In this document: piece by piece, positions 9,342 to 53,109 of the stretch
Numbering within the stretch: position 1 is the first letter of the stretch
Layout of the letters: each line of letters begins with the position of its first letter
Origin: an uncultured Tateyamaria sp.
Lineage (GTDB): Bacteria > Pseudomonadota > Alphaproteobacteria > Rhodobacterales > Rhodobacteraceae
DNA: 64,000 bases
NCBI RefSeq assembly: GCF_947504105.1
Contig: NZ_CANNGP010000006.1
Coordinates: 30,399 to 94,398 of the forward strand
Direction of reading: 5' to 3'
Notes under the pieces: model-generated
What the model was told of the DNA's origin: nothing
Databases searched by the model: none
Seen by the model: the letters and a program-made list of their open reading frames with translations, nothing else
Program-made: the position numbers and the translations under genes

Positions 9342-9401
9342 CGGGCCACTTGCTGCTGGTCCCCCTGGACGCTAAGGCTCCGGCAACAGACGGAGACCGA
9401 C

Positions 9402-25043: not shown

Positions 25044-25046
25044 CAC

Positions 25047-37117: not shown

Positions 37118-37897
37118 CTACAAAGCAAGGAACCGGTCAGAAATCTGATCGAGGTTTTCCAAGATCGCATCCCCGAGGACCGAGGCCAGTTGCACATCGC
37201 GCGGGTCTATCATGTCGCCCGAAGCGGCGGCCGATAGAATGGCTTCCAAGGTATTCCACTTGCTGGCGACCTTGCCCAAAATAACCTTGATATGAATATT
37301 GGGTGCAGCGACCAAGCCGGTCACTGCATTGCCAACGATCAAGGCATCCAATGACGCTTTGAAATAGGAAATACGCTCAATCATCGCACGCTCTGCACCC
37401 GTCGGTGCAAGCTCCGTAAGAAAGAGACACAGATCGCGCTGAAATGCCTGCGAAACGACACGCAGTTCATGCAACACTGCGTATGAAGCACGATATTTGT
37501 GCGGCACCTGCGACAGAGCCTGATACCGCATCTGGCTGTAGTGGAACGCAAGCGTCGGGTTGGTCTTCAACAACAAGGTGACGGGAACGGTGTGCCGATC
37601 CCCCGCAACGATCTGTTGCGCCGACTTGGTGAGCGTCGCCACCTCTTGCGAAAGGTGAGCATTTGCCTGCGATTGCATGGAAACACTGGCAGACAACAGG
37701 GAGAGTTCCTTGACCGATGCGGCCACATCCTCGGCATGTACGGGCGTTTGCGCCCCGACAAAAAGCAGACACACGGATTTGGTTATGCGATGTACCAATA
37801 CCGCCTGGTCGGCCAACCCACGGACGGTTGCTGGTTCGCCAGCCGTCGCATGCATAGCGACACCCAATGCAAGGATTGTTTTCAGAAGCAGTTTCAT
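37118..37897 (-). CDS. hypothetical secreted helical protein (weak resemblance to PilJ/NarX-type periplasmic four-helix sensor modules)
   Basis: Start chosen at ATG 37897, giving signal peptide MKLLLKTILALGVAMHATA. All-helical. Two segments loosely recall the RxxxSQ repeats of PilJ/NarX P-box domains (LHELRVVSQAFQRD). No transmitter domain. Confidence 0.55.
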   Translation of the reverse strand: MKLLLKTILALGVAMHATAGEPATVRGLADQAVLVHRITKSVCLLFVGAQTPVHAEDVAASVKELSLLSASVSMQSQANAHLSQEVATLTKSAQQIVAGDRHTVPVTLLLKTNPTLAFHYSQMRYQALSQVPHKYRASYAVLHELRVVSQAFQRDLCLFLTELAPTGAERAMIERISYFKASLDALIVGNAVTGLVAAPNIHIKVILGKVASKWNTLEAILSAAASGDMIDPRDVQLASVLGDAILENLDQISDRFLAL

Positions 37898-37993
37898 CAA
37901 GACACTCACATCGTATCCAAACCGTATCATTGAGACATCTAGATGATCGAGCTTAAGGTGGGCTTAACTGCAACAGGGAGTGCTCACGTCCCC

Positions 37994-38033: not shown

Positions 38034-38109
38034 GCCGCTGTAGCTCAGCTGGTAGAGCACGTCATTCGTAATGATGGGGTCGGGGGTTCGAGTCCCTTCA
38101 GCGGCACCA
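38034..38109 (+). tRNA. tRNA-Thr (anticodon CGU), CCA encoded
   Basis: GCCGCTG acceptor pairs with CAGCGGC. D arm GCTC-AGCTGGTA-GAGC. Anticodon stem CGTCA/TGATG with loop TT-CGT-AA. T arm GGGGG-TTCGAGT-CCCTT. Discriminator A plus CCA. 76 nt in total. Confidence 0.92.
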
Positions 38110-38153: not shown

Positions 38154-41100
38154 TCAGCTCAGTAGTGCCGCAAGGAAGAGCGTCAGATTTGCACCATCAC
38201 TGCCATCCGGATCTGCGACATCCGCAGTCTGAGGAATGACAGTCGCATCACTTGGACCATCCCAATTCGGTTCCAATCGCCCCAGACCGCCCTGTTCGAC
38301 AAGGTCGCGCACAAGCGAAAAGGCGGCCGCCGGGCGCTGGAGGCGGATAAAGTCGGACGTTGGCAAACCCATACCGTCGCGCTGGGCAATTCCCATGCGC
38401 GCTGCCATGGACAAGACACGCTGCGTACGCACCTTTGCACTGTAGCCTTGGGCAATGGCCTGATCGACAGAGGCAACGGCAGCACTTCCATCAAAGCTGA
38501 TCCCCCGACGCCGCATATGTGTGGCCCCCGTCAGCGAATACACGTCGTCCACCACAACCGCCGTTCCAGGCAAGCTGGCCGCTCGTCCCGGAAATGCATT
38601 CGGATGAAAGGCCGCAACGCGGTCCGGTGCGATGCCGGTCAATGCCTGGAGCGCTTCTGTCCGCAACTGGATTGACGCCCGCACATAGGGGGCTGGTTCG
38701 AAATCAGTTTCGCGCGGCGTACACACCACCACCTTCAGTCGTGGCTGCGCGGCCAGCCGATCGGCCAGTAGTTGTATCAGGTCGATCGCAACCGCATCCG
38801 AATTACCCCCCGCGTGCACCGTGCGAGCCAGCCCTGCGGTTTCGATGTAAACCAGTTCTTCAGCCTGATGGAACGCCCGGGCGAGTGACCACAGCGCGTC
38901 ACGCGCACCATGCACTGAAAGCTCGTACTCGCGGCGCAATTCGTTCAACAGACGGTTGCCATTGGTGACGTTCAATGTTGGTGCGGGCAGGCCAAGAGCG
39001 CTCGCAATGTCATTGATGACGGTCTGCAGGTCAATCGGTGTGTCTGAATCGAGCGGATTGCCCGGCGGCAGTAGCGAGAGCTCGGGCGTTTCCGCGACAG
39101 CTGCGATGGACTGTAGAAGTACGCCAGACGAGGTCGCGTCCGCAGGCGGATCCCCTGCCCGTTCCGGTAGGTCCATGTTGTCCCCGCCCGACATTGCAAG
39201 CCATCCGGGCGCTTGCGCGGGCGGCGGGCCACCCGGAAGAGGAATGAAGGGCTGTACTCTGCGCACGGCGTGACGGGCCAGATCGTAGGCAAGTGACCCC
39301 TCCACACGAACACCGGACGAATGCGTATCTGGACCGGGCGGGTTACCGGGATTTCCCTGACCGTGACTTGCTGACAGGGCGTCGCGCGACCACGAGGTTC
39401 CGCTCAGCACCCCGCTCCAATCCAGCCCCTCGCTGATTGCGGCCGAACCGATGCCGCTGACCACGACCGCTTCCAGCCGCCCCATGGTCGGGAGGCGCGG
39501 CCCGGTGCGTGGCACTGTTTCGGACGCAAGCGCGCGCGCTGCATCCACAGGTGTTCCGGCAGCGCCGTCATCCGGACCATCATCAGTGCCGAACAGCGGA
39601 ACAGGAGCGATGGATTTCACAGTGTCCGGTACCGCCGCCATTCGATCGGGCGCAGGCACAAAAAGGTCCACTGGCACAGTGGCAGGACCGGTAGCAATGG
39701 ACAGGGTGCGCGCGGCAAACAGCCTGCGGTTCTGAGTTCGGGGTGCAACGACCATGTCAAAGACCAGCGTAGCGGGATCGGGCTTGGGGTCACCAGGTTC
39801 GAGGCCCAACGGGTTGTGCACTAATATCTGTGTAGGTTGGGCCGCAACTGCGATCGCGGCCCCCCCATCTCCACGCTTGAACGAAGGGGTTTCGCCGATC
39901 GCGGGGATTGAGATGAAACGCTGATTGTAAAGTCGCACAGCGCTCCCGTCCGGGACAGCATCAGCTGCAAGCACGACCACCACATCTTCACCTGCTGTCC
40001 AAGTCGCCGTGGCACCAGCAAGAGGCGCTGGGTTTGCTCCGAATACGCCTGCACCTGCGCCAGTCGGGAAAGCAGGCCATCGGGCGGGGGCACCGGGTGC
40101 AGGTGGGACCGGCACACCGTCATCAAGCTCTGGTGCCGCCGCAAAAACCAGAGGGTTCCCCGCCGCACCGTCCATGCGTGTCAGCACCGCGTTGGACAGG
40201 GCCATCAGGTCAGGACCATCAGCCGCGTAATCAACAACAACCTCCGTCCGCACTTGCGGCTTCAGATCATCCGGCATGTCGCCGTCGTCGGCAGGGACCC
40301 CAGCCACGGCACTTGTGGTGCGGTTTCCCCGAAGGTGCCAATCAAGATCCACGGCAAAGGCCCGCAGAAACTGACGGGGCAACGCAATACCACCCGGAAG
40401 GCCCGGCTGTGCAAGTGGTCCCTGCGTCATTGTTCCGCCCGTGGCCCACCCCACCCGAATGCGGCCATCGGCATCGTCACCCGTCGCCGCAAGCACCTCG
40501 CTCGCCGCGAGTGTTACCATCCCGGACCCGTCAAGGTTGCCGGTGGGCGTGTCAGAGCCATCTTGCTTCTCAACGCCGACCCCCCCAAGGGCGGCGACAA
40601 ACGGGTTCCCGTGCAAGTCCACAACCTGCACAATGACGCCCGAGGCAAGCCCGGCAATGGTGGCAACGCCACCTGCTCCACCCGTTCCGCCACCGTCCGA
40701 AAAATCGAGGGCCGGGAAGGCTGTAATGAGGTCATCAAACAAGGCGGCCACCGACACGGGATCAATGATCAAACCGCGATGGTCATGAAAACTCATTGGC
40801 TCTGAACGACCAAGGTTTTCGCCGGGTTCGTATGTCTGTGGCGACCGATCCGGCACAGGTACGGCCCCGGCAAACACCAGTGTTTCAGGCACGGGGCGAT
40901 GATGCGGTGCAGGTGCAACCGCGTATCGCGCCATCAGGCTGGACAGTCGGGCAACAGCCTGCGGGTGGAGACGAAACGCGGCGACTGGGCCGGCGATGCC
41001 TGCCCCACTTACATCGCGAAACTCGTGACCTTGATCAAGATACTCCAACGTGCCACGAAATGGCGCCAAGGCATTGCCTGACGGTGTCAGCTGAAGGGTG

Positions 41101-41249
41101 GCGGCGTTGAACGTAGGGTCTGCGGCACCCCAAGCATTCGACAGGTGCGGCATCGTCAAACCAAGCGCATCCAGACCATTGTCTTGCAGAGCTTGTGCAG
41201 CAGCTTGCGGGGTTAGAGTGAAGACGTTCAACTGTGTCATGGCGGTCAA
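38154..41249 (-). CDS. giant-operon protein C (1031 aa), unknown function; C-terminal degenerate PLD-like layout
   Basis: Uninterrupted 3.1 kb ORF. Start is TTG 41249 (TTGA overlap with the upstream stop) or ATG 41240 (5 nt after it). Gly/Ala/Pro/Asp-rich but with normal hydrophobic content. No signal peptide, and no P-loop seen by eye. Confidence 0.85.
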   Translation of the reverse strand: MTAMTQLNVFTLTPQAAAQALQDNGLDALGLTMPHLSNAWGAADPTFNAATLQLTPSGNALAPFRGTLEYLDQGHEFRDVSGAGIAGPVAAFRLHPQAVARLSSLMARYAVAPAPHHRPVPETLVFAGAVPVPDRSPQTYEPGENLGRSEPMSFHDHRGLIIDPVSVAALFDDLITAFPALDFSDGGGTGGAGGVATIAGLASGVIVQVVDLHGNPFVAALGGVGVEKQDGSDTPTGNLDGSGMVTLAASEVLAATGDDADGRIRVGWATGGTMTQGPLAQPGLPGGIALPRQFLRAFAVDLDWHLRGNRTTSAVAGVPADDGDMPDDLKPQVRTEVVVDYAADGPDLMALSNAVLTRMDGAAGNPLVFAAAPELDDGVPVPPAPGAPARWPAFPTGAGAGVFGANPAPLAGATATWTAGEDVVVVLAADAVPDGSAVRLYNQRFISIPAIGETPSFKRGDGGAAIAVAAQPTQILVHNPLGLEPGDPKPDPATLVFDMVVAPRTQNRRLFAARTLSIATGPATVPVDLFVPAPDRMAAVPDTVKSIAPVPLFGTDDGPDDGAAGTPVDAARALASETVPRTGPRLPTMGRLEAVVVSGIGSAAISEGLDWSGVLSGTSWSRDALSASHGQGNPGNPPGPDTHSSGVRVEGSLAYDLARHAVRRVQPFIPLPGGPPPAQAPGWLAMSGGDNMDLPERAGDPPADATSSGVLLQSIAAVAETPELSLLPPGNPLDSDTPIDLQTVINDIASALGLPAPTLNVTNGNRLLNELRREYELSVHGARDALWSLARAFHQAEELVYIETAGLARTVHAGGNSDAVAIDLIQLLADRLAAQPRLKVVVCTPRETDFEPAPYVRASIQLRTEALQALTGIAPDRVAAFHPNAFPGRAASLPGTAVVVDDVYSLTGATHMRRRGISFDGSAAVASVDQAIAQGYSAKVRTQRVLSMAARMGIAQRDGMGLPTSDFIRLQRPAAAFSLVRDLVEQGGLGRLEPNWDGPSDATVIPQTADVADPDGSDGANLTLFLAALLS

Positions 41250-44200
41250 TCCCGGTCAGAACTTGAGACGCGTCGCCCGTCCGGCGCTATGATCTCAAAC
41301 GTGATGCTGCGGATGTCCTTGCGGGCAAACACGGTGATCCCGGTGCGGGCGCCAACCTTCTGACGGTTTGCGACGTAAAGCGGTGCCTGCGCGCCAGACG
41401 TGGACGGCAGACCACCGATGGGCACCTCATCCAGCGGCGCTTCGTATACCAGGTTCCGCCCATCGGTCTTGAACTGAGACGCTGGCCGGTTCGTTCCAAG
41501 ATCCAGAATCGGGCCCGGACGTGGTTCGAACGGTCGTGGAATGCGGAAGCCCGGAGTCGGCTCTGGTGTGTCATCAGGCAGTCTGCCAAAACGGCCCAGT
41601 CCGCCGGGCAACTCGCGCAGATCGCGGAACCGATCCGTTCCAAGGATACCACCGCCACCCGATGTCGGCCGAATAACGATCCGCACGCGGTGCTCCAGCG
41701 GTCCTGCCACCGGCGCATCGGTGGTCACGAAATACACAGTGCCCCGGCCTGATATGCTGAAACTGTCGACTTCGCTAAGATCAGGTAGCGGAACAATCGA
41801 CCCTTCGCCAAAGCTGACGGCACGTTCAGTCACCCGTCCGAGAGGATCAGTCATCCGCAGAAGTATGCTGCCTGCGGGCAGCGTATTCGGTCGCCGTACG
41901 AACAAGCGATAGTTGCGATCAAGCCCGTCCGGCACGCGCCAAAGCGCAGTTTGCGTCATCTCGGGCACTTCGGGAACAAGTTCGAGCGGCGTGGCACCGG
42001 GCTGCTTTTGGCCCGGGTTCAAAGGATCTTCGCCAGCATCCGGCGCGATTGTGTAGTAATGGAGATGCGGTTCGCCCTCCAAACGCACCTCGGCTGACAG
42101 GGTATGCGGGCCAAGCGTGGTGGGTGTGATCGGCGCATTGGAGGCCATCGATACAAGTATGTCACCCAGATTGCCCCCGCCTGGCCATGTCAGGATTGGC
42201 GGTGTGAGCTGTGGCGGATCGTTCGGTGGGATTACAACCGGAACCGCCGGAGATGACCGCCCGCGACCCTTGCGGACGCCGCGTTGTGCGTCGTCCAACC
42301 CCCACGCAATCGCCCGATACCATTGCGGCTTCCATGAGCCGCCCGGAGCGTCCTCACCGGTGATGCCCGTGATCCACGTTTCGGTGCCATTCGTGTCAGT
42401 CCCCACCATCCAATCGGCAGTGCTACCAGTAAGCGACACCATTGGCGGTCCCATGCTGTCAATCTGGCGTGCCGCATCCGCGACCCGCGTGCGATAGAGA
42501 TCGATACCCCCTGGACGCGCACCTGAACTTGCCCGCGTTTCGACCCGAATACGAGCGGCAAAACCTCCGGGTGTTTCGATCCTTTGCGCCTCGATCGTTG
42601 GAGGGGCCGGTGTTGCGATGCGTGGTGCCACAAAGGGAACCATCGCTTTGTCTGCGTCTGAGCCAGCGGGCCACGGACCTTCGACACCGCCAGCGCTGAC
42701 CGGGATCACCACAAAGAGGTGAATAGCCTGCGATCCACGTGGCAAGGCAACATCCAGATTGGTACCGGTCAGCAAAGTCTTGTTCACGCGGTTGAAATCC
42801 CGGCGGTCGGGGGAAGCAGTGAAAGCATTCTTGAGCGTGGTGAGGCGCGTGCTGAGGGTCACACCCGGCAGTGCTTCGGGTATGTCACGGGCCGCCAGCA
42901 TCCGGGTTTCAGTGCTTTGATACAGCACGTAGCCTTCTGCACCGGGCACGGATTGCCATTCAACAATCGCATGGCATTCGCCCTTCGCATCCGGCAGGCT
43001 GGCCAGTCGTACAACATCGATCACCTGCGTTGGTCGCGAGCGTGGATCAGATGCGTAGGTCAGTTTGCTGCGCGGTCCAAAGCTACCGACACGGCCCGGT
43101 GCTAACGCCTCGCGCAGCCGCGCCCGCATCGCCAGTCCGACATGCCGCGTACCATTGTAGTCGAGCGAGAATCCCGGGATCGTCACGCGGTACCTGCGCG
43201 CGTGCCCCTGGCTGGAAAATCCCGGTGCGGCGACCTCTGCATCGCCTTGGGCGTCTAAGCTGATGACGTTGGCGGCCCCGTCAAGACCCGGAACGCTGGG
43301 ATCGTTGAGAGAAGGCACATCACCCGCGAAGGTGATGAACACGTTCTGTGCCGCACCGCCGATGGTTTTTTGCAACCCACCTGGTAAACCACCCGGCTCG
43401 GGATCGTGGCGTGTTGCCGCCGCAAACAAACGCCCGACAAAATCGACCCGGGCGACTGAACGCACACGCCAATCCACGACAAATTCAACAACAAGGTCCG
43501 CCGGGCACACTGTACCGCTGCCAGTATCAATGGGCCGCAGTTCCGCTGATATGATGTTGACGGTGTCAGGTTCAGGTTGCGTGGTCGAAAACGGCTGCGT
43601 GGACCACGGGCTCCAGATCCCAAAAAGGTTCTGGTTGGCCAAACCATATTGTGCGCTAACCGAGCCCGGCGCGTTCGGAATGACAAAGCCAGTATCCGAT
43701 GCCGATTGCCGAGGATACTCCGGATCCTGGCGGTTCTCGTTGTTTCCAATGGGCATAAGACCCTTGCCGGACGGGCGTCGTTCCATCAACGGGGTGGCAG
43801 GGCCGACAACACCCCCCTCGGCACGTCCAAACGCAAAGCTCGAGACAGAGTTGAAGTTGTCGAGAGGCAGGCGTTCCCAACTTGCACGGCTGGTGGCGGT
43901 CCAATCCCCATCTGGCGCGACCGGTCTTTGATGAGCAAGGAAATGCAGGCGCAGATCGGTGGGTGGAATGGGGCGGGTCACACGCCGCGGGCGGGGAATG
44001 ATCGTGGCCAGTTCCAGCGGTTCGCTTTGCCCGTCCAGCCCACGATGCCAAAGGCCGGTCACCATGAAATCATAGTCGGCCATGTCCGGCGAACCGAGCA
44101 AGCTTATTGCGCCAAGGTTGATCGGGTCCAGATCAACGTAAGGATAGCCCGTACCGAACCCCATCAGCACGGATTGCATCGGATCGGTTGCAACAGCCAT

Positions 44201-45223
44201 CTGCATCAACTTGACAGACGATATCCGCGCCTCGCCATCATCCGCGGGCATCGTATCACCATTCGCGTTTTGCGGTGGGTTGATGGCGTGGCGGTCCAGA
44301 ACGTCGGCCTGCTGGTTTGGCGGCGCCTGCATGGCCGTGTGCAACATATCGAGCAGCGTCTTGTTGGCATCGTCGATCATACCATCAAGGTCCGGCACCT
44401 CCCATGCCGGGGCAGTGTCGCCCGTGGGAAAGGTTGGATACCAACCAAACGGGTTAATTCCGCGCGAAAATCGCTGTTTTGCAGCCTCTTGCGCCGGTAA
44501 TTCCGCCCCGACAAGACCCTGATCCTTGCCATGCACTTGACCGTCGAGATCGCTGAACTCACTTGGATCAACGGGCAATCCAACCGTTTCAATCAGCTCC
44601 CATCCGTCGACCTTTTCCGCCTGCGACAAGCCTTCGCCAAATGCAGACACCTCCTGACCGTCCGCGCCGCCGATCAGAACGGCCGTAATGAATGGCGCAT
44701 AAAAGCGATACGTGCGCTCACCATTTGCTGGAATGTTCAGGCTTTCGAACCCGAGCATGTTTTCGAACCCGACGCCGTTCGCCAAGGGCACGATTGTAAC
44801 GCCCAATGCGGGGCCCGTGCTTTTGACCCGGACGGTAATCGACATGACCGGTTCGGTGAATTGATGCACCGTGCCCAATGGAGGAAGTGTGATCCTGTTT
44901 GTCAGCACTGGTTCAGGGCTCTGCAACAATGGGAAAGCGACCCGACGCCAGACCTTGAACGGTTCAGAAGGTAAACCGACACCGGGGTTGACCTGCCAAC
45001 GCAGAAACACCGCCAGAACACGATTGCCAAAGTCCTTGAGGTCAAGGCCCTGCGGCGCGGAGCGCGTGGGCCGGAATGTCTCGTGCGTGGCGAAGGAGTT
45101 AACAGATGGCCCAGAAGTGCCTGTTACCACCTCATTTTCATCCGCAAAGGGACGCAGCAAAGAATCCGCAGTGATCATCGCACCCTGACCACGGAACAAA
45201 TAGGGGCTGAATGTGCGGTTCAT
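41246..45223 (-). CDS. giant-operon protein B (1325 aa), unknown function; contains Fn3-like segment
   Basis: Uninterrupted 4.0 kb ORF. The AGGAGG RBS overlaps the TAG stop of the upstream ORF (GATTAGGAGGGACCGATG, 45223-45240). Fn3-type signature ECHAIVEWQSVPGAEGYVLYQS at aa 749-770. Confidence 0.85.
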   Translation of the reverse strand: MNRTFSPYLFRGQGAMITADSLLRPFADENEVVTGTSGPSVNSFATHETFRPTRSAPQGLDLKDFGNRVLAVFLRWQVNPGVGLPSEPFKVWRRVAFPLLQSPEPVLTNRITLPPLGTVHQFTEPVMSITVRVKSTGPALGVTIVPLANGVGFENMLGFESLNIPANGERTYRFYAPFITAVLIGGADGQEVSAFGEGLSQAEKVDGWELIETVGLPVDPSEFSDLDGQVHGKDQGLVGAELPAQEAAKQRFSRGINPFGWYPTFPTGDTAPAWEVPDLDGMIDDANKTLLDMLHTAMQAPPNQQADVLDRHAINPPQNANGDTMPADDGEARISSVKLMQMAVATDPMQSVLMGFGTGYPYVDLDPINLGAISLLGSPDMADYDFMVTGLWHRGLDGQSEPLELATIIPRPRRVTRPIPPTDLRLHFLAHQRPVAPDGDWTATSRASWERLPLDNFNSVSSFAFGRAEGGVVGPATPLMERRPSGKGLMPIGNNENRQDPEYPRQSASDTGFVIPNAPGSVSAQYGLANQNLFGIWSPWSTQPFSTTQPEPDTVNIISAELRPIDTGSGTVCPADLVVEFVVDWRVRSVARVDFVGRLFAAATRHDPEPGGLPGGLQKTIGGAAQNVFITFAGDVPSLNDPSVPGLDGAANVISLDAQGDAEVAAPGFSSQGHARRYRVTIPGFSLDYNGTRHVGLAMRARLREALAPGRVGSFGPRSKLTYASDPRSRPTQVIDVVRLASLPDAKGECHAIVEWQSVPGAEGYVLYQSTETRMLAARDIPEALPGVTLSTRLTTLKNAFTASPDRRDFNRVNKTLLTGTNLDVALPRGSQAIHLFVVIPVSAGGVEGPWPAGSDADKAMVPFVAPRIATPAPPTIEAQRIETPGGFAARIRVETRASSGARPGGIDLYRTRVADAARQIDSMGPPMVSLTGSTADWMVGTDTNGTETWITGITGEDAPGGSWKPQWYRAIAWGLDDAQRGVRKGRGRSSPAVPVVIPPNDPPQLTPPILTWPGGGNLGDILVSMASNAPITPTTLGPHTLSAEVRLEGEPHLHYYTIAPDAGEDPLNPGQKQPGATPLELVPEVPEMTQTALWRVPDGLDRNYRLFVRRPNTLPAGSILLRMTDPLGRVTERAVSFGEGSIVPLPDLSEVDSFSISGRGTVYFVTTDAPVAGPLEHRVRIVIRPTSGGGGILGTDRFRDLRELPGGLGRFGRLPDDTPEPTPGFRIPRPFEPRPGPILDLGTNRPASQFKTDGRNLVYEAPLDEVPIGGLPSTSGAQAPLYVANRQKVGARTGITVFARKDIRSITFEIIAPDGRRVSSSDRD

Positions 45224-45232
45224 CGGTCCCTC

Positions 45233-48200
45233 CTAATCCTCTTCCCAAGGTGCGCGGGTCAGATCGGTAGCAACGATCTCGATCTCAACATCGCTGGCGA
45301 ACCCTTCGTCGAGATACGGCTCGGCAAAGGCCTTGCGCACCATGTTCAGCCGCAAGCTCTGGCCCCGCGCACCCGGTTTGAGAGTGATCAAGGCGCGCTG
45401 CGTGCCGGGTGAAAACAGAATCTTGTCCACGAGATCATCCGAAGAGGCGCTTTCCGCGATGGACAGCCACGGCGTCGCTTCCAGCTTCCAACGGGTTGTT
45501 GCAATGCCATCGGGATCTTCTTCTGTTACTTCCTGAGGCAGCGGACGTGTCCGGTGCATCGGCTCGCTCGCGTCCAGAATGATTGCTGCCGGTTGCGGAT
45601 CGGCCGCCGGGTTCGCTTGTTCCCAGAAGACAATCACGCGAGCCGCTCCGGGTACATCCATCGGTTCCAGCCCCGCGCCGATCAGTTCTTCGTCCAGTTC
45701 TGGCCCCATGGTCGTGAGCAGGGTTTGCCCCGGCACGATTCCATCAAGCGCACGACCCGCAAAACGTGGATTGTTGCCAATTGCCTGCAACATGCCCGCT
45801 TCGACAAATCTGTGCTCTGTCACCGTTGCCTGAACATCGCGGGCAAAATCCTCGGTCAGACCGAATTGCCCGGTCGAGAAGTTCAGCCGGTACACCCGAT
45901 CGCCGACTGTGCCCGCATCCGCACCGATATCGACGGACTCAATGTTCATGACATAGTCGGTGTAGGGATCAAGCGGGATGGGCAGCTTGACCATCGAATG
46001 GCGCACCCTTTCCCCATCCACCGGAACGCAGGGGCCGGTTTCCGTGATCACATCCTGTAGCACGGCTTCGAACGGCGACAGGACGTGAGCCTGAACGTTT
46101 TCAAGCGTTCCAGCGTCAATCGGCACAGGGTGTGGCAGACCGGGTTCGTCCACTTGCTTGAACGATGCCGCCTTGAGCCGCACCCGCAATTCCTTGCCAT
46201 AGGCTGCGAACAGTTGATCCACGGCGTTCGTTGCAAAGACGACGCGGGGTGCATCAAGGCCGAACACATGTGCTTCTCCCTCGGCAGGCAAGGTGCAAAG
46301 AATCCATGGATCAAGCCGCTTGGGCGCCTCTGCATCTGTGCGGAACCAGAACTCCGCCGTCTGCTCGGCCGCGTCGCTTTCCGCACCTTCATCGTCACGG
46401 ATGCGCACATCACTTCGGCACGTTACGCGGTAGACGGAGTCGGGGAACAACAGCGCGACATCGGCGCTTTGTGGCCCTAGGAATTCTTCGATTGCATCGC
46501 GATCTTTTTGAATTTCCGTCGTGTCATATTCTTCGCGCTCAGCCTCACTTAGGCGGGTCAACTCGATCGCGCCGACATAAAACGGACGACCTTGCTGTTC
46601 GAAGCGGCTGGCTTGCTTCTCATCCAGATACAAAACACCAATCCGGAACCGATCCGTTCCTTCTGGCGGTTCCAGCTTAACACAGACCGGTTGGCGTGGT
46701 GACAGGCGCGATTGGCCGTAAAGAACGGTGTGGTACACATCCTCGAACCATGGGCCATTCACATCTGCCCAGCGCGGCGGGACGCTGGTTACGGACAGCA
46801 GATCAGACACCCGTACAGGACGTACGTCCAGGACGTTGCCGCCGTCATCAAGGAAGTGGATCATCAGGCCGCGGCCTGTTCCCTGATCATCGTTCAAAAG
46901 ACCGCGGTTGACCCACATCAGCACATGGCCCGCGAGGATGGCACCGCTGTCGACCTCAATGACGTCCGACAATGGCCCGTGTTTGACGCCCATTTCGGAC
47001 AGTCTGTCGGCGACCTCACCCGCGCGGCTGACATCGCCAAAGATCACCGGTTCTCCGGTATCCCAAAACGGTGACGCCAGCACGCGCCCCGGGCATTGCG
47101 GCTCATCTACCTGAGGCCCGCCGGGCACATGGGTAGCATGTGTTGCGGGGCCGTTCGTAACACTCAGCAACGTGCTGCGGGTGATCGATATCCCTTGTGC
47201 CACACGTCGTGCAGCTTCGCCCAAGTCAAGACGTTCGGCAGTCAGGGTGTCTACTGTGGCTGCAGAGCCAAAGGACCCGATCACCGCACGGTCCACCAAG
47301 GCGCGCTCGGCCAGACGACGCGTCCGCCCGGTCAAGGTCGCGGTCGCAACATCGCCATCGCTTGTCGCCCCACGGTTCAATGTACCGGCGCCCAGCGACA
47401 AAGCGGGGTTCAGGCGGCGCGTTGTTATGCCTGTATTCAGGTCCAATTCCGCCGGATCGAGCGCGTCAGACAAATTACGCAGACGACCCGTGTCTATGGT
47501 CAAATCCAGCGGACGTCCGGTGATATCACGGCCGACAAAACCGCGCGTTGGTGGGACGTCATCCTGAAACTCAGGTGCGCAATCCACAAGCCCGCCCTCG
47601 ACGACCGCCGGAACGATGCCGCGCAACTGGTCCAAACTCGGGTCCCCGGACCGCCACGTTTCATGCACATGCAGCGCCCGGTCTGCATCCGCTGACCGGG
47701 TTGCATCTTCTGGATCAGGCCACGCAATACCGGTCAGGTCCCATCCGCTCGGTGATGGCCCAAGCCGTTCATTGGAAAATGTCCAGAGCACAGGCGCTGC
47801 CGGCGCGGCAGGGTTACAGACCCGCCCCCAACGCTCACGAATGGTTTCTTCCAGGATCTCAGACCGTTCCAGCGCCTTGGGCGCCGGGTTCGGTGTCCAG
47901 TTGAGCAGTGACAGATGTGTTGTCAAGTTTTCACCATCCGGCGGCTCAAGCGTCCACCAGGTTGATGGCGTGTTGCCCGGCATCACGGCGTCAGCTGATC
48001 CGACACGTTCAAGCGTGACATCGGTCATCGTGTAGCAATAGGCAAAGTCACCCCGCCCGATGAACCCACCCGCTGGCGCGCCCGTGCTTCCACCCGGTGC
48101 GTCGCCCAGCGGCATGATTCCACCGTCCAGCGCAGGCATCGCAAGGCTCAGCACCGGGATTGCATCGATTGGGACGACAGGCATTTCGCTGTCGGCGGGT

Positions 48201-51200
48201 TGGCTGTCACCACGCGGCATATCACCGATCTTGCTGTCGATGCCGCGATCCACGCCCGTCCCCTCGGCCAACGCCGGCGTACGGCTGACCAGTACTGCGC
48301 CAGCAAACAAGTCGGGCGGTGGCGGCAGGATTTTCGAATCCTCGCCAATATGGAAATCGACACAGCCCTTGATCGAGAAGAAGAACAGGTCAAGCTCGCC
48401 ACAGACCTCACCATCAATGCGGCTGACCTGCGTACCGTCAGCACGTTCGCCAACCTGCGCTGACAGGGCAGCGGATGCCGACAAGCTGATGATGAACAGC
48501 TTTAGCTCGCCCCGCAGATACAACAATCCGCCAACATAGAAAGGTTGGAACCCGATGATGGCGTTAAAGCCCGCAGTCACCTTCAGATACAAGTTGATCG
48601 AGGTGTTGCCCCAGATGATCGACACCTCAAGGCCTGCAGCGATGCCAAACCCGTTGACCTGGCTGAGAGCAGGGAGGTTATTGCCGGGCGGCTGGTAGCT
48701 GGGAATGCCATGTCCAGAGAACATGACATATCCGGACCCATCAAAGGCCCCGAGGATCGACGCACGAATGGGACCCGGCAGCGGATTGCCTTGCAGGTCA
48801 CTGCCCTCGAAACTGCCCAGATAGATATGCCAGAACTTACCGTCCTTGAGGTTGAAGAATGCCTCGATCGGGATCTTGATCTCGACCAGCGGGTCGATGG
48901 TGAAATCAATGGAAATCCCGATGGTCAGCGTGCCGCGGCCAAAGTCGAGATCGATGACACAAAGGAACGTGCCTTCTGCATTCTTGTCCTTGAGTGCAGG
49001 CAGCACAGCCAAGAGGTTCGCCTTAACCACCAGCAGAACGCGCGGGCCGGGCAGCTCCAGCATGAACATGCCCTTGACGTTGAAAATGATCGGGCTGCCC
49101 ATTGTGCCCAGCGTAATGCCGACACCGAAGGCCCAGCTATCTACGTTGGTTTTCCAAGCTTGCAGGTTCGTGGGGTCCCCGTTGGCGCGGTTCTTGAGCC
49201 ATTCCAGTGCAGGGGTGAGAGATGTGATGCCGTCTTCGTCGCGCGCGTAGTGCATGGCGAACAGGCCGACAAAGCCATAAATGCCGAACCCTGACTGGGC
49301 GAGTGGGATGGCGACAGGCAACTCGACTTCCAATGCAACGGCGACGCCTGTTGCCGGGCCACCGGACGCTTCGGATATTTGCGCAACAGCAATCTGCGCG
49401 GCGATGCGCATCTTGACCGGGATCAGCCTAACGTCGATCCCGCCCTTGATCTCGGTCCCCTCAGCCCCGTCGTTGAACTCCATGTAGCCGGAGCCTTCCA
49501 GTACACCCGGTACTTTCAGGCCCGCGCCGAACGCCGTTAGTTCTGGCGCGCCCAGCGGATCTATCGGCATGCGCACGCGGGCGCGGTCCACTGAGACAAC
49601 CCCAAGATCGATGGCAAAACCAAGATCGATCTCGAAACTCAGCGGGTTGGTGCGCGCGATGCGAGCGCCAAGCACCTGAAGGATCTGACCCAGCGGATCG
49701 GCTACACGGATTGCTCCGGGGCCGGACACATCGATGGAATATCCCTTGGAGCTGTCAAAGACAGGCCGAAACTCGAACTTTCCGCCGCCGCCCGGTGGTT
49801 CACCAAAGCTCAGGCCGATGGCCTTGTACCGCACGGCCAAGGGCGTATCGCGCGGGATTTCCAACAGCGGATCACCGCCGCCGAAGGCAATGTTGACCGA
49901 AACCGCAGTCTCAACATCAAACAGGAAGCTCATCTGCCATCTGTCGCCTTGTCGGCGGAACGCCCCTTCGCCACCAAACAGAATGACACGTTCGATGTTG
50001 AAAAAACCCGCTGATGCGAGGCCAGTGGCCACTCCGATGACCGCCGCCGACGCCACAATCGGTGCCACACCGCCATCAGCCGGGTTGGCAGGCGCAATCT
50101 CGGACAACAGCGGGGTGAAGATGGTCGTCATCCCCAATAGGTCACGCCCGAAGTTCTTAGGTTCCAGCGCCTGCCCGGGCAGTTGCCCAGTCATCACAAG
50201 CCCATCTTTGTCCGCCGGATCCGCCCCAATATACAGCTTCACCTCGTCAGTCTGGCTGGCTGGGTCAGTCTGGTAGAGGAACAGGAAGTCGGTGATGCCA
50301 TCGGCCGGGTTATTGCCAACGCCGCGTATATCGTCGGGCGTTTCCCCTGCCCCGCCACGCTGCAGCGCGCCCTCGATACCGGTTTGGAAATCGATCTGGC
50401 CTGACAGCTCCAAGGCCACGAACTGGTTTCGAATGATCCGAACCTTCAATCGGGCCGAACGGAACCAGTCCGGCGTCGCCGGCTCACTGGGTGGGGTGTC
50501 TGTGACCTCGGGCGGGGGCGGTGGCTCTGGTACATCGGGGCGGCGGACATCTCCGGTGATCACTTCGCCCGGAAGATTAACAAGGAACCCGGTGATTTCG
50601 GCGTTCCACCACTGTGAGCGGTTTGGCTCACCTTGGGTCTTCCAGACATTCTCTCGCCAACTGATTGGGAAGCTGGCACCGCTGGGTTCATCCACACCAG
50701 TGAAATCAGGGTTAAAGCGGTCATTCAAAAGCGCACGCAACCCCTCGGCCCGACGCTGGCTTAGCAGCCAGTTATACTGCGCCTTTCCGTCATCTCCGTC
50801 ATAGCTGGCTGTGCCTGTAATCGTGATGTCGCGGGGATTGATGCGTGACAGAATGTCGGCATAAGCCGTGTCAAAGGGATCGGCGGTCGTGCGCCAATCC
50901 GAATCCTCGTCCGCAATAAGGGCCTGATCATCCCGGATGTTCCCGGCAACCTTCGAATAGCTGAGCGGGTCATTCTTGGGCGGCGTGTCGTAACGGAAGT
51001 ACGCCGTCAAAGACGAGATGTTGTCATCTGGTGTGCGTGCCTCGATCGTGCGGCTTTGGCCACCGGAAACATCCACATCGACAGAGCTGCCAACACTGGC
51101 TGGTCCTCCGTCAATGACCCATTCGGTATTTGGCGGAACAGTCGCGCCGGCCAGACTGACGCGCACTGTTCCCGCCTGCCGGTTGTCATTCAGCAGCACC

Positions 51201-52588
51201 AGCGGTGGTGCTGGCAGGGATTGCGCTTCTCGGGTGATCGACGTCGTTGTCAAGATCGCCGCCAGCGGCTCACCCGGGGGCGGGGCCACCGCAGGAGGCG
51301 CACGCCGCGCTGCTGTGATGGTCAGCGTCGCCTGCTTCGACGGTGCACTGGCATCGGTCGCAGTGATCGTGATGGTGCGTGTGCCGGTGGCGGGTGTTGT
51401 AACGTCATGTACGACGCCGGCTTGCGCGCCGCTGCCTTGGTCGACCGTTACGCTGTAGGGCGCGCGACCACCGCGCACATCAACCGCAAGTCGCGTGGCT
51501 TCAGGCAAGGCAGCTGTTGCAGCCCCCGGGCTTGTTCTTGTGATGCCGATGCCCTGCCGATCACTGGTGAAGAAATTCGCGCCTATGACAAGGTCACCGC
51601 TGCCCTGGTTGATCACCGCAACATCGAAGTCGCCCGTGACCCCATTCGAACCGCCAAGCCCGATCAACAGGTTTTCGACGCCGGCATTGACTGCAAAATC
51701 TTCGGCGCCGTTCGGGGCAAAGAAGATACGGATTTCGGGCAGGTAAAGTCCGGTCCACGCCTCATCAAACCCAAATTGCGACAGGATTTCGGGTGGCGTA
51801 TAGCCGTCTGACAGATCAAGGTACGCCGAGCGGAACCCGAACCCGACCACACGTCCCAGCCCGATAAAGGCATGGCTGGGCTCCATCGTGACAAGCTCTG
51901 CTGCCGCCAATGCGCCGGGGTCATCGAGGCCTGACGCACCAAGAGACACCAGGCAAACCTGCACCTGCGCGTTGGCGTCCGAGCCCTGGGTTAAGCGAAG
52001 CTTGATCTTGGGCAGGTGGAACACCACGTCCGTGCGCGTGGTATGTGGAATGAGCAACCCGTCTGGCCGCATCTCTGCCGGTTGCAGGAACGGTGGCCGC
52101 AACTCGATGCCCGCAAGGATCAGATCCAGCGTGAAGCCTGTATTCGGGTAGTCAGATGGCGGTGGGTCAATCGGCGGTGTGTCCAGTGCGTCAAGAATGT
52201 CGCGCAACGGTTGGAAATCTGCATCGCCACCCGGGACGGTCGCAACACCATTTGCAATGATTGTGCCCGCGACGCGCGGCACAGTCATCGAGAATTCAAC
52301 GCGGGTGTCGGTGATGTCGAGCCAGGGTTCGGACCTGTCGGGTTGGTTACGAGGGTGCCCTTCTGCATTGGCGGCACCAGCAGTCAGCGTGCCCGTCGAT
52401 GGATCAAAGCTGGGTAGATCAACATCACCGGAAAACCGCGCTACGCCGCGGACCACCGTCCCGCCGGGTCCTGCCGCGGTTTCATAACCTTCGACATAGA
52501 TGACTGACAGCACTGCGTGCCATGTGGTCGCCTCGCCCCGGAGAATGTAGGGTCTGAACAAATCCACCAAAGAAAGATCGAACGACAT
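45233..52588 (-). CDS. giant-operon protein A (2451 aa), unknown function; OmpA/MotB-like peptidoglycan-binding signature, Ig-like segment, Pro-rich linker, Gly/hydrophobic beta-rich core
   Basis: Uninterrupted 7.36 kb ORF. ATG 52588 with AGGAG 10 nt upstream. ITITGTASYDGDDGKAQYNWLLSQRRAEGLRALL at aa 588-621 matches the GhTD..G...YN..LS.RRA core of OmpA C-terminal-like domains. No signal peptide. Confidence 0.85.
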   Translation of the reverse strand: MSFDLSLVDLFRPYILRGEATTWHAVLSVIYVEGYETAAGPGGTVVRGVARFSGDVDLPSFDPSTGTLTAGAANAEGHPRNQPDRSEPWLDITDTRVEFSMTVPRVAGTIIANGVATVPGGDADFQPLRDILDALDTPPIDPPPSDYPNTGFTLDLILAGIELRPPFLQPAEMRPDGLLIPHTTRTDVVFHLPKIKLRLTQGSDANAQVQVCLVSLGASGLDDPGALAAAELVTMEPSHAFIGLGRVVGFGFRSAYLDLSDGYTPPEILSQFGFDEAWTGLYLPEIRIFFAPNGAEDFAVNAGVENLLIGLGGSNGVTGDFDVAVINQGSGDLVIGANFFTSDRQGIGITRTSPGAATAALPEATRLAVDVRGGRAPYSVTVDQGSGAQAGVVHDVTTPATGTRTITITATDASAPSKQATLTITAARRAPPAVAPPPGEPLAAILTTTSITREAQSLPAPPLVLLNDNRQAGTVRVSLAGATVPPNTEWVIDGGPASVGSSVDVDVSGGQSRTIEARTPDDNISSLTAYFRYDTPPKNDPLSYSKVAGNIRDDQALIADEDSDWRTTADPFDTAYADILSRINPRDITITGTASYDGDDGKAQYNWLLSQRRAEGLRALLNDRFNPDFTGVDEPSGASFPISWRENVWKTQGEPNRSQWWNAEITGFLVNLPGEVITGDVRRPDVPEPPPPPEVTDTPPSEPATPDWFRSARLKVRIIRNQFVALELSGQIDFQTGIEGALQRGGAGETPDDIRGVGNNPADGITDFLFLYQTDPASQTDEVKLYIGADPADKDGLVMTGQLPGQALEPKNFGRDLLGMTTIFTPLLSEIAPANPADGGVAPIVASAAVIGVATGLASAGFFNIERVILFGGEGAFRRQGDRWQMSFLFDVETAVSVNIAFGGGDPLLEIPRDTPLAVRYKAIGLSFGEPPGGGGKFEFRPVFDSSKGYSIDVSGPGAIRVADPLGQILQVLGARIARTNPLSFEIDLGFAIDLGVVSVDRARVRMPIDPLGAPELTAFGAGLKVPGVLEGSGYMEFNDGAEGTEIKGGIDVRLIPVKMRIAAQIAVAQISEASGGPATGVAVALEVELPVAIPLAQSGFGIYGFVGLFAMHYARDEDGITSLTPALEWLKNRANGDPTNLQAWKTNVDSWAFGVGITLGTMGSPIIFNVKGMFMLELPGPRVLLVVKANLLAVLPALKDKNAEGTFLCVIDLDFGRGTLTIGISIDFTIDPLVEIKIPIEAFFNLKDGKFWHIYLGSFEGSDLQGNPLPGPIRASILGAFDGSGYVMFSGHGIPSYQPPGNNLPALSQVNGFGIAAGLEVSIIWGNTSINLYLKVTAGFNAIIGFQPFYVGGLLYLRGELKLFIISLSASAALSAQVGERADGTQVSRIDGEVCGELDLFFFSIKGCVDFHIGEDSKILPPPPDLFAGAVLVSRTPALAEGTGVDRGIDSKIGDMPRGDSQPADSEMPVVPIDAIPVLSLAMPALDGGIMPLGDAPGGSTGAPAGGFIGRGDFAYCYTMTDVTLERVGSADAVMPGNTPSTWWTLEPPDGENLTTHLSLLNWTPNPAPKALERSEILEETIRERWGRVCNPAAPAAPVLWTFSNERLGPSPSGWDLTGIAWPDPEDATRSADADRALHVHETWRSGDPSLDQLRGIVPAVVEGGLVDCAPEFQDDVPPTRGFVGRDITGRPLDLTIDTGRLRNLSDALDPAELDLNTGITTRRLNPALSLGAGTLNRGATSDGDVATATLTGRTRRLAERALVDRAVIGSFGSAATVDTLTAERLDLGEAARRVAQGISITRSTLLSVTNGPATHATHVPGGPQVDEPQCPGRVLASPFWDTGEPVIFGDVSRAGEVADRLSEMGVKHGPLSDVIEVDSGAILAGHVLMWVNRGLLNDDQGTGRGLMIHFLDDGGNVLDVRPVRVSDLLSVTSVPPRWADVNGPWFEDVYHTVLYGQSRLSPRQPVCVKLEPPEGTDRFRIGVLYLDEKQASRFEQQGRPFYVGAIELTRLSEAEREEYDTTEIQKDRDAIEEFLGPQSADVALLFPDSVYRVTCRSDVRIRDDEGAESDAAEQTAEFWFRTDAEAPKRLDPWILCTLPAEGEAHVFGLDAPRVVFATNAVDQLFAAYGKELRVRLKAASFKQVDEPGLPHPVPIDAGTLENVQAHVLSPFEAVLQDVITETGPCVPVDGERVRHSMVKLPIPLDPYTDYVMNIESVDIGADAGTVGDRVYRLNFSTGQFGLTEDFARDVQATVTEHRFVEAGMLQAIGNNPRFAGRALDGIVPGQTLLTTMGPELDEELIGAGLEPMDVPGAARVIVFWEQANPAADPQPAAIILDASEPMHRTRPLPQEVTEEDPDGIATTRWKLEATPWLSIAESASSDDLVDKILFSPGTQRALITLKPGARGQSLRLNMVRKAFAEPYLDEGFASDVEIEIVATDLTRAPWEED

Positions 52589-52653
52589 GAGTCAAAGACT
52601 CCTGCAAAATATATTTGCGAAAAAGCGGCGACAAAAGAAATAAAACTAGAAAA

Positions 52654-52682
52654 ATTCAACCATTGATGGGAATTTCTGTCAA
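52654..52682 (-). promoter_or_regulatory. sigma-70-like promoter candidate for the giant operon
   Basis: The minus strand reads TTGACA (52682-52677), N17, TTGAAT (52659-52654). It sits inside a 35%-GC segment about 65 nt upstream of the ORF A ATG. Confidence 0.3.
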
Positions 52683-53109
52683 ACACGATAAGCGTAATTC
52701 CGCCTGCATCAATAGCTCCGTTGACTTGTTCACCGGTGACCACGCACGGAAATTGGTTCCTTTAGAAACGGTTTCAGCACGGCTGCCGCCATCTCAGGTT
52801 TCTTGAGAGCGTTATTAGATGAAAGTGGCTATTTTATAATGACTTAGTCATAGCCCGCCGGTGCGTCGTCAGATGGTATAAAGTGCCACAAAGCCCATGA
52901 TTGCGAGCTGCATCTTTGTAAAGATCGTAACCCATAGCAGCAGGCTTGTTCGCCTCTACATACCGCCGGGATGCTCTGTGTAAACTTCTACAAAGTGTCT
53001 CTTCAGTATTTCCGCCCGCACATCCCAGCTCACGATTTACGTGTGAAGCGATCATATGAAGCATGTCGTTGCGTATGCTCCGTCTTGCAGCAGTGCAACA
53101 GCTCTTGCG

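Follow-up and report, generated by a model that had tools for sequence, protein, structure and literature searches.

The three-gene cassette

The DNA considered here, referred to below as the window, is a stretch of 64,000 nucleotides from an uncultured Tateyamaria sp. of the Rhodobacterales (contig NZ_CANNGP010000006.1, positions 30,399 to 94,398 of the forward strand). It carries a 14.4-kb cassette of three consecutive, very large open reading frames (ORFs), here named A, B and C, which are read in that order from the minus strand. That the cassette constitutes an accessory, horizontally spread and self-contained operon for a three-protein assembly is well supported. An earlier note on this DNA, made from the letters alone, had proposed a search for co-conservation of the triad, and such a search showed the same A-B-C order, gene sizes and tight coupling in about 50 loci, which represent at least ten bacterial phyla. 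The triad is thus real and co-conserved, although it is not obligatory because ORF C proved to be optional or replaceable. The cassette is new as a system, in that no described system matches it on any defining feature tested, and it could still prove to be a variant of a known logic. The main features of the locus are as follows, with protein lengths in amino acids (aa).

45233..52588, minus strand: ORF A, 2451 aa from an ATG start, assigned to the DUF6603 superfamily of giant proteins and the signature gene of the cassette
41246..45223, minus strand: ORF B, 1325 aa from an ATG start, the obligatory partner of ORF A
38154..41249, minus strand: ORF C, 1031 aa from a TTG start or 1028 aa from an ATG at 41240, with a predicted two-lobed phospholipase D (PLD)-superfamily fold
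45221..45247, minus strand: A/B coupling junction, TGGGAAGAGGATTAGGAGGGACCGATG, comprising the tail codons of ORF A, its TAG stop, an overlapping AGGAGG and the ATG of ORF B
41238..41249, minus strand: B/C junction, ATTGACCGCCATG, with a TTG overlapping the ORF B TGA, or an ATG 5 nt beyond it
52589..53109, minus strand: upstream spacer of 521 nt and low GC, presumably holding the promoter or leader of the operon
38034-38109, plus strand: tRNA-Thr(CGT), located by ARAGORN 44 nt from the ORF C stop and the sole tRNA of the window

The sizes and positions given for the three ORFs in the earlier note were confirmed by the ORF listing. Stops make up about 3% of random codons at this base composition, and an open frame of 2451 codons would occur by chance with a probability of about 1e-35; moreover, the GC content at the three codon positions is coding-like. 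The junctions had also been read correctly. The ATG of ORF B lies 9 nt downstream from the TAG of ORF A, which is itself overlapped by the AGGAGG motif, and ORF C has two candidate starts, a TTG overlapping the TGA of ORF B and an ATG lying 5 nt after that stop. The ATG at 41240 is favoured as the probable start because most ORF C homologues are 1028 aa in length. As had been noted, the GC content of the ORFs is host-like, at 60-62% compared with 59.5% for the window, and the spacer at the upstream end is GC poor, with a mean of 46% and a range of 35-52% in 100-nt windows. Neither a sigma-70 consensus nor an Rfam family was detected in this spacer, and the number of terminators at the cassette was not above chance.

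Conservation, spread and loss of the cassette

The locus survey, in which each species was represented by one genome, returned 80 loci. They derive from Alpha-, Beta- and Gammaproteobacteria, Acidobacteria, Chloroflexi, Nitrospirae, Abditibacteriota, Gemmatimonadetes, Planctomycetes, Actinobacteria and Paenibacillus. In practically all loci of sufficient sequence, tblastn placed ORFs B and C directly downstream of ORF A and in that order, and across phyla the three proteins keep their lengths at sequence identities of 40-60%. Examples are an Acidobacteriales triad of 2424, 1214 and 1114 aa and a 33%-identical copy of 2480, 1225 and 1087 aa on a megaplasmid of Rhizobium tropici; the two most distant ORF B homologues also sit in triads. 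All-against-all clustering of 2,667 flank ORFs revealed no co-conserved extra gene.

The coupling of the first two genes is itself conserved. ORF B starts 0-17 nt after the ORF A stop in at least six phyla, and in some genomes start and stop overlap as TGATG or TAATG. Junctions of the window and of 14 other loci (L001, L005, L009, L017, L021, L023, L040, L045, L046, L049, L054, L071, L072 and L073) were compared, and the codons for the terminal WEE residues of ORF A, of the type TGGGAGGAG, provide a GGAGG-type Shine-Dalgarno sequence for ORF B. Since these codons have this double use, the conservation of the APWEE tail may partly reflect a constraint at the RNA level. The conserved translational coupling suggests that the subunits are made together.

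Sequence identities within the family do not track taxonomy. ORF A of Marinobacter is 61% identical to that of the window, compared with 37-39% for some Alphaproteobacteria. The metagenome-assembled genome (MAG) Pseudomonadota bacterium P01_B01_bin.64 harbours two divergent triads (L003 and L030), with ORFs A that are 70% and 39% identical to that of the window, which suggests independent acquisitions or an old paralogy, with mis-binning a further possibility. Both the departures from taxonomy and the presence of two divergent copies in one MAG point to horizontal transfer of the cassette. A full triad was also found on a 17.8-kb contig binned to a MAG of Candidatus Paceibacteria, of the candidate phyla radiation (L081), which is surprising for a small genome and may be a binning error.

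Comparison of variant loci indicates which part of the cassette is constant: ORFs A and B constitute the core, and ORF C is optional or replaceable. ORFs A and B occur without ORF C in an actinobacterial clade (Cellulomonas, Kribbella, Jiangella and Actinotalea) and in an Arthrobacter, and no recognisable substitute for ORF C was found in the two-gene actinobacterial forms. Plasmid pAMI4 of Paracoccus aminophilus encodes a divergent ORF A together with a B-like protein (hhalign probability 92). On plasmid pHME322 of the archaeon Haloferax mediterranei (L085:9805-24494), a DUF6603-type giant of 1858 aa is followed by an ORF B homologue of 1370 aa (hhalign probability 97.9 over 665 columns) and by a protein of 1142 aa which is a genuine Baseplate_J (Pfam E=2e-12) and shows no similarity to either ORF A or ORF C. 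A small ORF and a MoxR ATPase come next at this locus, the sole link of the family to virus-like parts and to an ATPase. A rearranged variant is carried by a plasmid of the fungal endosymbiont Mycetohabitans endofungorum (L083:8201-21222), where a 1322-aa protein with weak B-like similarity (probability 56), a 463-aa PLD protein with intact HKD motifs and a 2496-aa DUF6603 giant lie between insertion sequence (IS) elements and RelE/ParE and ChpB toxin-antitoxin modules.

One congener has lost the cassette. In the uncultured Tateyamaria isolate 4-55, the region L060:9935-11455 corresponds to window positions 38470-53120, with both flanks kept at about 82% nucleotide identity, and the 14.4-kb cassette is replaced by a 506-aa in-frame fusion of ORF A (residues 1-384) to ORF C (residue 927 to the end), with the joint at a 'VDQ' microhomology common to both. 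The arrangement has the appearance of a clean deletion of about 13 kb that is recent and, because a congener has deleted it, the cassette is considered to be dispensable and accessory. Disruption in close relatives had been held in the earlier note to count against its proposal, and in this one congener it was found. That note had also pointed out the neighbouring tRNA-Thr gene. ARAGORN confirmed the distance of 44 nt, but the adjacency is without significance: a tRNA-linked island was rejected because there is neither an att-like direct repeat nor an integrase, and the site is common to congeners.

Among 11 loci inspected gene by gene, Pfam revealed no recognisable defence system; ten had metabolic or regulatory flanks, and L088 had only unannotated short ORFs upstream. 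Marks of mobile elements were confined to Edaphobacter, with an integrase fragment and ArdC, and to Thauera, with a transposase fragment. In Edaphobacter modestus (L095), a phage-integrase fragment, a single-stranded DNA-binding protein and an ArdC-N/MPTase-PolyVal gene surround the cassette (9191-9682 and 24428-25225), which suggests that an integrative or conjugative element carries it in this genome. A few transposases or integrases are present among the 124 nearest-flank ORFs of 38 loci, together with 15 strong family-member matches to PADLOC defence models, a count that is not de-duplicated. The latter comprise, amongst others, LmuA, Avs1a, a DRT reverse transcriptase, MADS, AriA, SAVED-TIR and CARF. 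The genome-wide background of such matches is expected to be about 1%, which is an estimate and not a measured value, and the defence matches in the nearest flanks are well above it.

Architecture of the three proteins

Searches of the three proteins against known families yielded very little. No matches were found in Pfam or NCBIfam, and these scans revealed no nucleoside triphosphatase (NTPase), nuclease, protease or TIR domain. PHROGs gave one domain-level match at E=0.06 and nothing else, and PADLOC-DB 2.0 (2023 library) gave nothing at E<=0.1. When family profiles were compared with all PDB sequences the sole match was a weak OmpA-like one in ORF A; matches to OspA, IL-27 and FN3 were not significant. 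With regard to a phage origin, tblastn yielded no match in 50,697 phage genomes and none was found in IMG/VR. The absence of signal peptides, which had been read from the translations, is borne out by N-termini that are conserved and non-signal-like and by the lack of any convincing hydrophobic segment that could serve as a signal peptide or transmembrane helix, although no dedicated signal-peptide predictor was applied. All three proteins are highly acidic, with a net charge of -134 for ORF A. Literature searches with DUF6603, Pfam and InterPro names, locus tags and accessions yielded no relevant paper.

ORF A is 100% identical to a protein from an uncultured Tateyamaria sp., which places the window in the Roseobacter group of the Alphaproteobacteria. 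It is not an orphan. Its homologues form more than 231 length-conserved clusters of 2330-2490 aa, and an exhaustive profile search with its core region yielded 1367 representative clusters at E<=1e-3, of which 485 reached E<=1e-30; most of the proteins have 1,700-2,600 aa. Window ORF A itself gave nothing against Pfam DUF6603 (PF20248) at E<=0.01, but homologues exceed the cut-off of 27 bits (30.4 for P0005, which is 82% identical, 43.6 for P0061 and 42.6 for P0100) and several are labelled 'DUF6603 domain-containing protein' by NCBI. On this sequence evidence, and by way of its homologues, ORF A is assigned to the DUF6603 superfamily, which is catalogued yet uncharacterised; since that family has no assigned function, membership does not explain ORF A. 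On the basis of conservation and composition the protein splits into seven regions, all encoded on the minus strand.

51539..52588, minus strand: residues 1-350, highly conserved N-terminal domain with 50-78% identity per 50-aa block across phyla
50909..51538, minus strand: residues ~351-560, less conserved, with a weak Ig-like profile match (E=0.2)
50549..50908, minus strand: residues ~561-680, OmpA-type, peptidoglycan-binding-like module
50474..50542, minus strand: residues 683-705, proline-rich linker read from the translation, which separates the N-terminal modules from the conserved core
47579..50473, minus strand: residues 706-1670, conserved core modelled as all-beta, with DUF6603 at ~980-1420
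47096..47581, minus strand: residues 1669-1831, hypervariable low-complexity loop bounded by the invariant cysteines C1669 and C1831
45233..47095, minus strand: residues 1832-2451, conserved C-terminal region with the invariant tail APWEE

The N-terminal domain (residues 1-350) has no Pfam or PDB sequence match and contains many invariant residues from residue 6 onward; the N-terminus is therefore not a signal peptide. The region that follows probably consists of Ig-like beta modules, to judge from its weak profile match, and PKD domains are present in one distant family member. For the Ig/Fn3-like modules described in the earlier note, sub-threshold hints are all that was recovered, whereas the proline-rich linker was confirmed at residues 683-705. 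The OmpA/MotB-type signature was recovered as well, at low scores. Profiles of ORF A match OmpA-like chains in PDB (6u83, Pal and YfiB) at E=0.022, or 0.0065 with a more diverse profile. Window ORF A has no match to Pfam OmpA, but a close homologue gives E=0.017 (15.9 bits, below the cut-off of 27.2) and distant family members reach E=2.3e-6. All bacterial phyla of the family, monoderms included, retain the motif G-x-[AS]-S-[YF]-E-G...Y-N-x-x-L-[SA]-x-R-R-A, with N605, L608, R612 and A613 invariant. We therefore regard the signature as probably genuine, though weak by score. It shares the pattern G-x-x-S...N-x-x-L-S-x-x-R-A, as well as weak but consistent profile matches, with the OmpA_C-like domains of OmpA, Pal, MotB and YfiB. 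It differs from them in lying below the Pfam threshold and within a 2451-aa protein that has no signal peptide, lipobox or transmembrane anchor. To our knowledge, OmpA-type domains are otherwise known only from outside the cytoplasm.

The core region (971 aa, with an 80-sequence alignment) was modelled with AlphaFold2 at a mean predicted local distance difference test (pLDDT) score of 76, rising to 80-93 in the DUF6603 part, and a predicted template modelling (pTM) score of 0.53. The DUF6603 part corresponds to the Gly/hydrophobic block of the earlier note. The model is almost entirely beta and contains at least 25 long antiparallel strands in a meander with short turns, and these strands are amphipathic, one face being 67% hydrophobic and 5% charged and the other 30% charged and 36% small. 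Long amphipathic antiparallel strands are also a property of membrane barrels and of the ApoB100 belt, and Foldseek against PDB returned FimD/PapC, SlpA, LptD, TonB-dependent receptors and the ApoB100 beta-belt. The template modelling (TM) scores were 0.09-0.18 and the root-mean-square deviations about 20-39 Å, and homology to the barrels or the ApoB belt was rejected because these are low-TM matches of generic beta-meanders. ORF A differs from the outer-membrane barrels, moreover, in having no signal peptide or BAM-type context, with TM-scores no higher than 0.18, and its family extends to Actinobacteria, Paenibacillus and Haloferax, all of them without an outer membrane. A viral fold library yielded nothing convincing (TM <=0.13). 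The core appears from the model to be a fold without a solved relative, in the form of a very large amphipathic sheet or barrel.

The loop that follows the core ranges from 77 to 233 aa across lineages. Among congeners its identity is 44-68%, compared with about 95% elsewhere in the protein, and no other part evolves nearly as fast between close relatives; a role in specificity, sensing or processing is conceivable. Its two bounding residues belong to a set of six invariant cysteines in ORF A. The Haloferax homologue shares residues ~1070-2350 of window ORF A (hhalign probability 99.9) but not the N-terminal half with the OmpA module. Such a pattern would be expected of N-terminal modules by which the protein is fitted to one given type of envelope, although it is not proof of this.

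ORF C has more than 139 homologues of about 1030-1120 aa. Its AlphaFold2 model, built from 81 sequences, has a pLDDT of 88.3 and a pTM of 0.92. Foldseek matched this model to plant PLD alpha, human PLD1/2, PldA of Pseudomonas aeruginosa and Streptomyces PLD with a probability of 1.00 and E-values down to 9e-11. In all, 100 matches among PDB folds were obtained at E<=1e-3, and all 50 among the matches listed belong to the PLD superfamily, each with a probability of 1.00; phosphatidylserine synthase and vaccinia F13 are also among the fold matches. Homology is indicated by hhalign, which aligned the ORF C family with the PLDc_2 protein of Mycetohabitans (probability 94.5, E=7.8e-8, 166 columns), placing the C-lobe on the second HKD lobe, and by a match of that protein to the ORF C hidden Markov model at E=4e-8. 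A Pfam scan of 26 ORF C relatives yielded no match, PLDc included. Judged by its modelled fold and by profile homology, ORF C is a PLD-superfamily member that fails the defining catalytic-motif test. It resembles plant, human and Streptomyces PLD and PldA/Tle5 in its two-lobed fold and in the homology of its C-lobe to the PLDc_2 protein, but the canonical HxK(x)4D is missing from the C-lobe and, by a manual register, from the N-lobe. A PLD fold with degenerate motifs is also found in vaccinia F13. Thus, of the earlier statement that the cassette has no recognisable enzymatic core, the absence of a canonical HxK stands, whereas a PLD fold is now predicted with high confidence. Large insertions make the protein twice as large, and the motifs of its two lobes are as follows.

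40758..40793, minus strand: ORF C N-lobe motif S-F-H-D-x-R-G-L-I-I-D-P, residues 149-160 in A5 numbering
38484..38579, minus strand: ORF C C-lobe motif (R/P)-x-T-x-V-I-V-D-D...G-x-x-H-x-R-R-R-G-x-x-F-D-G, residues 887-918 in A5 numbering

In the N-lobe, all 81 subfamily members share H151, R154 and G155, and the position expected for the HKD lysine is variable (A/N/H/G), in a register that was set manually since hhalign left this lobe unaligned. In the C-lobe, the position of the catalytic His is occupied by Arg in 71 of the 81 members and by Pro in the window, that of the Lys is Thr in 74, and residues D897, D898, G904, H907, R909-R911, G912, F915 and D916 are invariant in the subfamily. The C-terminus, in which invariant residues occur, is among the most conserved parts of the protein, at 46-55% identity across phyla. 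Divergent triads (R. tropici, L087 and L088) encode full-length ORF C homologues (E=1e-169 to 1e-229) in which H151, R154 and H907 are lost and only VI(I/V)DD and RRG(L/M)(T/S)FDG are kept. Because the HKD catalytic residues are lost, we infer that the modelled pocket more likely binds phosphate or a lipid head-group than performs classical HKD hydrolysis.

ORF B evolves faster than ORFs A and C. Its 56 homologues always lie downstream of an ORF A gene where the context could be checked. No significant match was obtained for it in any library or PDB profile search; sub-threshold FN3/Ig signals occur at the N-terminus (LRW...G-PSEPF-VWRR) and near residue 750.

Possible roles of the cassette

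The explanation that we favour, as a possible but still doubtful one, is that the cassette encodes an envelope-acting complex used in conflict between organisms, either for phage exclusion at the envelope or for attack on neighbours. The three proteins would be synthesised in the cytoplasm, with no Sec or Tat signals, and assembled into one large complex that acts on a cell envelope. ORF A would attach to peptidoglycan through its OmpA-type and Ig-like modules, and its DUF6603 core would form a very large amphipathic beta-sheet or barrel, the hydrophobic face of which engages a lipid membrane. ORF B would be an FN3-like adaptor, and the HKD-less pocket of the PLD-type ORF C would bind phosphate or a lipid head-group. 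Because no NTPase is present, the action would be driven by binding or assembly. A role in conflict is preferred to one in housekeeping because of the patchy spread, the transfer between phyla, the loss in a congener, the hypervariable loop and the occasional defence or mobile neighbours. Complex formation, peptidoglycan binding, membrane engagement and the role in conflict are all proposed with low confidence. The earlier note had envisaged a previously undescribed multi-component machine, either anchored in the cell envelope or serving for delivery; it remains true that no described system or paper matches the cassette, and an undescribed machine of several components that is related to the envelope is still the most reasonable view, while envelope anchoring or delivery is conjectural.

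Several observations weigh against an envelope-acting complex of this kind. An export signal is absent in all lineages, and this leaves unexplained how a wall-binding module would reach the envelope in monoderms, diderms and possibly archaea. The global topology of the ORF A core is uncertain at a pTM of 0.53, amphipathic strands would suit a soluble beta-sandwich too, and every Foldseek match of this core has a TM-score of 0.18 or less. Clustering of the flanks produced no co-conserved immunity, lysis or secretion gene, and most of the inspected loci lie among ordinary metabolic genes. A broader proposal, which we consider a realistic possibility although somewhat short of probable, is that a DUF6603 giant and its partner represent an unrecognised class of machine, lacking NTPases and signals and present in Bacteria and Archaea, in which a membrane-engaging sheet or barrel is combined with interchangeable third subunits (an HKD-less PLD, a true PLD or Baseplate_J), and which would serve as a weapon or shield at the level of the envelope.

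Amongst the alternatives, a cytoplasmic anti-phage defence of the abortive-infection type seems unlikely but accounts for a number of the observations. Such a system would sense infection, through the loop, the Ig/FN3 modules or a muropeptide, and would kill or arrest its producer by means of the amphipathic sheet or the PLD-type subunit. A patchy, horizontally transferred and dispensable cassette is consistent with this, signal peptides are absent as a cytoplasmic system predicts, and the free-living hosts of every lifestyle, together with an archaeon, have virus pressure as a common factor. The 15 strong defence matches, which without de-duplication amount to roughly a tenth of the 124 nearest-flank ORFs, and the Mycetohabitans variant with its intact HKD PLD amid IS elements and toxin-antitoxin modules, point in the same direction. 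Nevertheless, the three proteins have no PADLOC matches and lack the usual sensor and effector domains (NTPase, nuclease, protease and TIR), ORF C has lost its HKD residues and is itself absent in some lineages, 10 of the 11 inspected loci have metabolic or regulatory flanks devoid of recognisable defence genes, and OmpA-type and PKD modules are unusual in cytoplasmic systems. Zorya, of which the ZorB protein carries an OmpA-like wall-binding domain, provides an analogy from background knowledge only, in that an accessory operon joins a wall-binding module to large proteins whose role is unclear, but the cassette shows no PADLOC match to ZorA-D and has no MotA-like membrane subunit, nuclease or helicase. 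A released toxin that is Tc-like yet unrelated to Tc, in which ORF A would bind and translocate and ORFs B and C would be cargo or adaptor, with release by lysis or a non-classical route and grazers or bacteria as targets, is in our estimation improbable. Like the ABC Tc toxins, the cassette consists of three large co-transcribed genes of similar lengths (about 2450, 1300 and 1030 aa) in the descending order of TcA, TcB and TcC, Tc toxins likewise have no signal peptides, and an effector-like fold, putative in the cassette, is encoded by the third gene. The match of ORF C to phospholipases, including the type VI secretion effector PldA, the hypervariable loop and Ig/PKD-type modules of ORF A and the high acidity of all three proteins could also be accommodated. 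What sets the two apart is the absence from the cassette of an RHS/YD cocoon, a beta-propeller and an aspartyl autoprotease, and of any relationship in sequence or fold. ORFs A-C have no Pfam or NCBIfam match to RHS_repeat, the Rhs core, SpvB or TcdB and there are no RHS structures among the fold matches. There is also no VRP1 or TcA Pfam match, and ORF A, in the 971 aa of its core that were modelled, is almost all beta, with no helical shell or channel. Whereas the third Tc protein has a hypervariable C-terminal toxin, ORF C is strongly conserved, not polymorphic, and without the catalytic HxK; immunity and lysis genes are not co-conserved, and most hosts are non-pathogenic bacteria of soil and water, chemolithoautotrophs among them. 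No test available placed the three proteins among the Tc, RHS, RTX, TamB or phage-tail families.

Less probable again is a resident machine for lipid handling or envelope homeostasis, in which a wall-tethered giant sheet would carry or shield lipid in the manner of ApoB, lipid-transfer proteins or AsmA/TamB, aided by a PLD-family subunit. It draws on the ApoB100 beta-belt as the best Foldseek match of the ORF A core, followed by LptD and other barrels, and on the strongly one-sided amphipathicity of the strands. The PLD superfamily includes lipid synthases, as is known from other work, ORF C matches phosphatidylserine synthase, and many loci are set among ordinary genes of metabolism or of the envelope. 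Nonetheless, the TM-scores of that core do not exceed 0.18, and the family is rare, patchy and was lost unreplaced in a congener, which is unlike housekeeping, and it is present in monoderms and an archaeon, the envelopes of which are very different. It also has no transmembrane anchor, signal peptide or N-terminal hydrophobic segment and no Pfam match to AsmA or DUF490, and TamB, AsmA and Vps13-type structures were absent from the fold matches. The reading to which we give the least credence is that of a domesticated virus tail or baseplate remnant, a structural device for adhesion or penetration that has dispensed with the tail. The Haloferax locus, where A and B homologues are coupled to a true Baseplate_J, is in its favour, although this Baseplate_J is unrelated to A, B or C. 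Phage tail modules are typically signal-less, decorated with Ig, FN3 and PKD domains, wall-binding, giant, beta-rich and tightly coupled, as background knowledge has it. They would, however, be expected to leave traces that were not found: there was no match in the 50,697 phage genomes, IMG/VR or PHROGs, TM-scores in the viral fold library were at most 0.13, and capsid, sheath, tube, terminase and lysis genes were absent near the inspected loci.

Large conserved hypothetical operons are not rare in themselves. The cassette nevertheless represents about 4,800 residues of strongly conserved protein with neither an assigned function nor a mention in the literature searched. Should its product prove to be a membrane-engaging complex, made with neither secretion signals nor ATPases, it would embody a new principle for attack on, or protection of, the cell envelope, whereas a defence system of this kind would rank with the largest known and have unprecedented parts. 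The cassette is compact, being limited to three genes without helpers, and natural two-gene forms and a natural deletion variant are available for comparison. Its hosts include culturable and tractable bacteria, namely Roseobacter denitrificans OCh 114, R. litoralis Och 149, Chromobacterium, Pseudomonas fluorescens and Paenibacillus.

The neighbours of the cassette in the window are housekeeping genes, for an IclR regulator, a short-chain dehydrogenase/reductase (SDR), a 3-hydroxyacyl-CoA dehydrogenase, carB and a cyclopropane-fatty-acid synthase. Just beyond the tRNA gene lies a 270-aa ORF (37118-37930, minus strand) with a PilJ-type match that is sub-threshold only (E=5e-5, below the cut-off). 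A syntenic 263-aa ORF occupies the matching position in Tateyamaria isolate 4-55, and the 270-aa ORF is therefore considered to belong to the flank and to lie outside the cassette.

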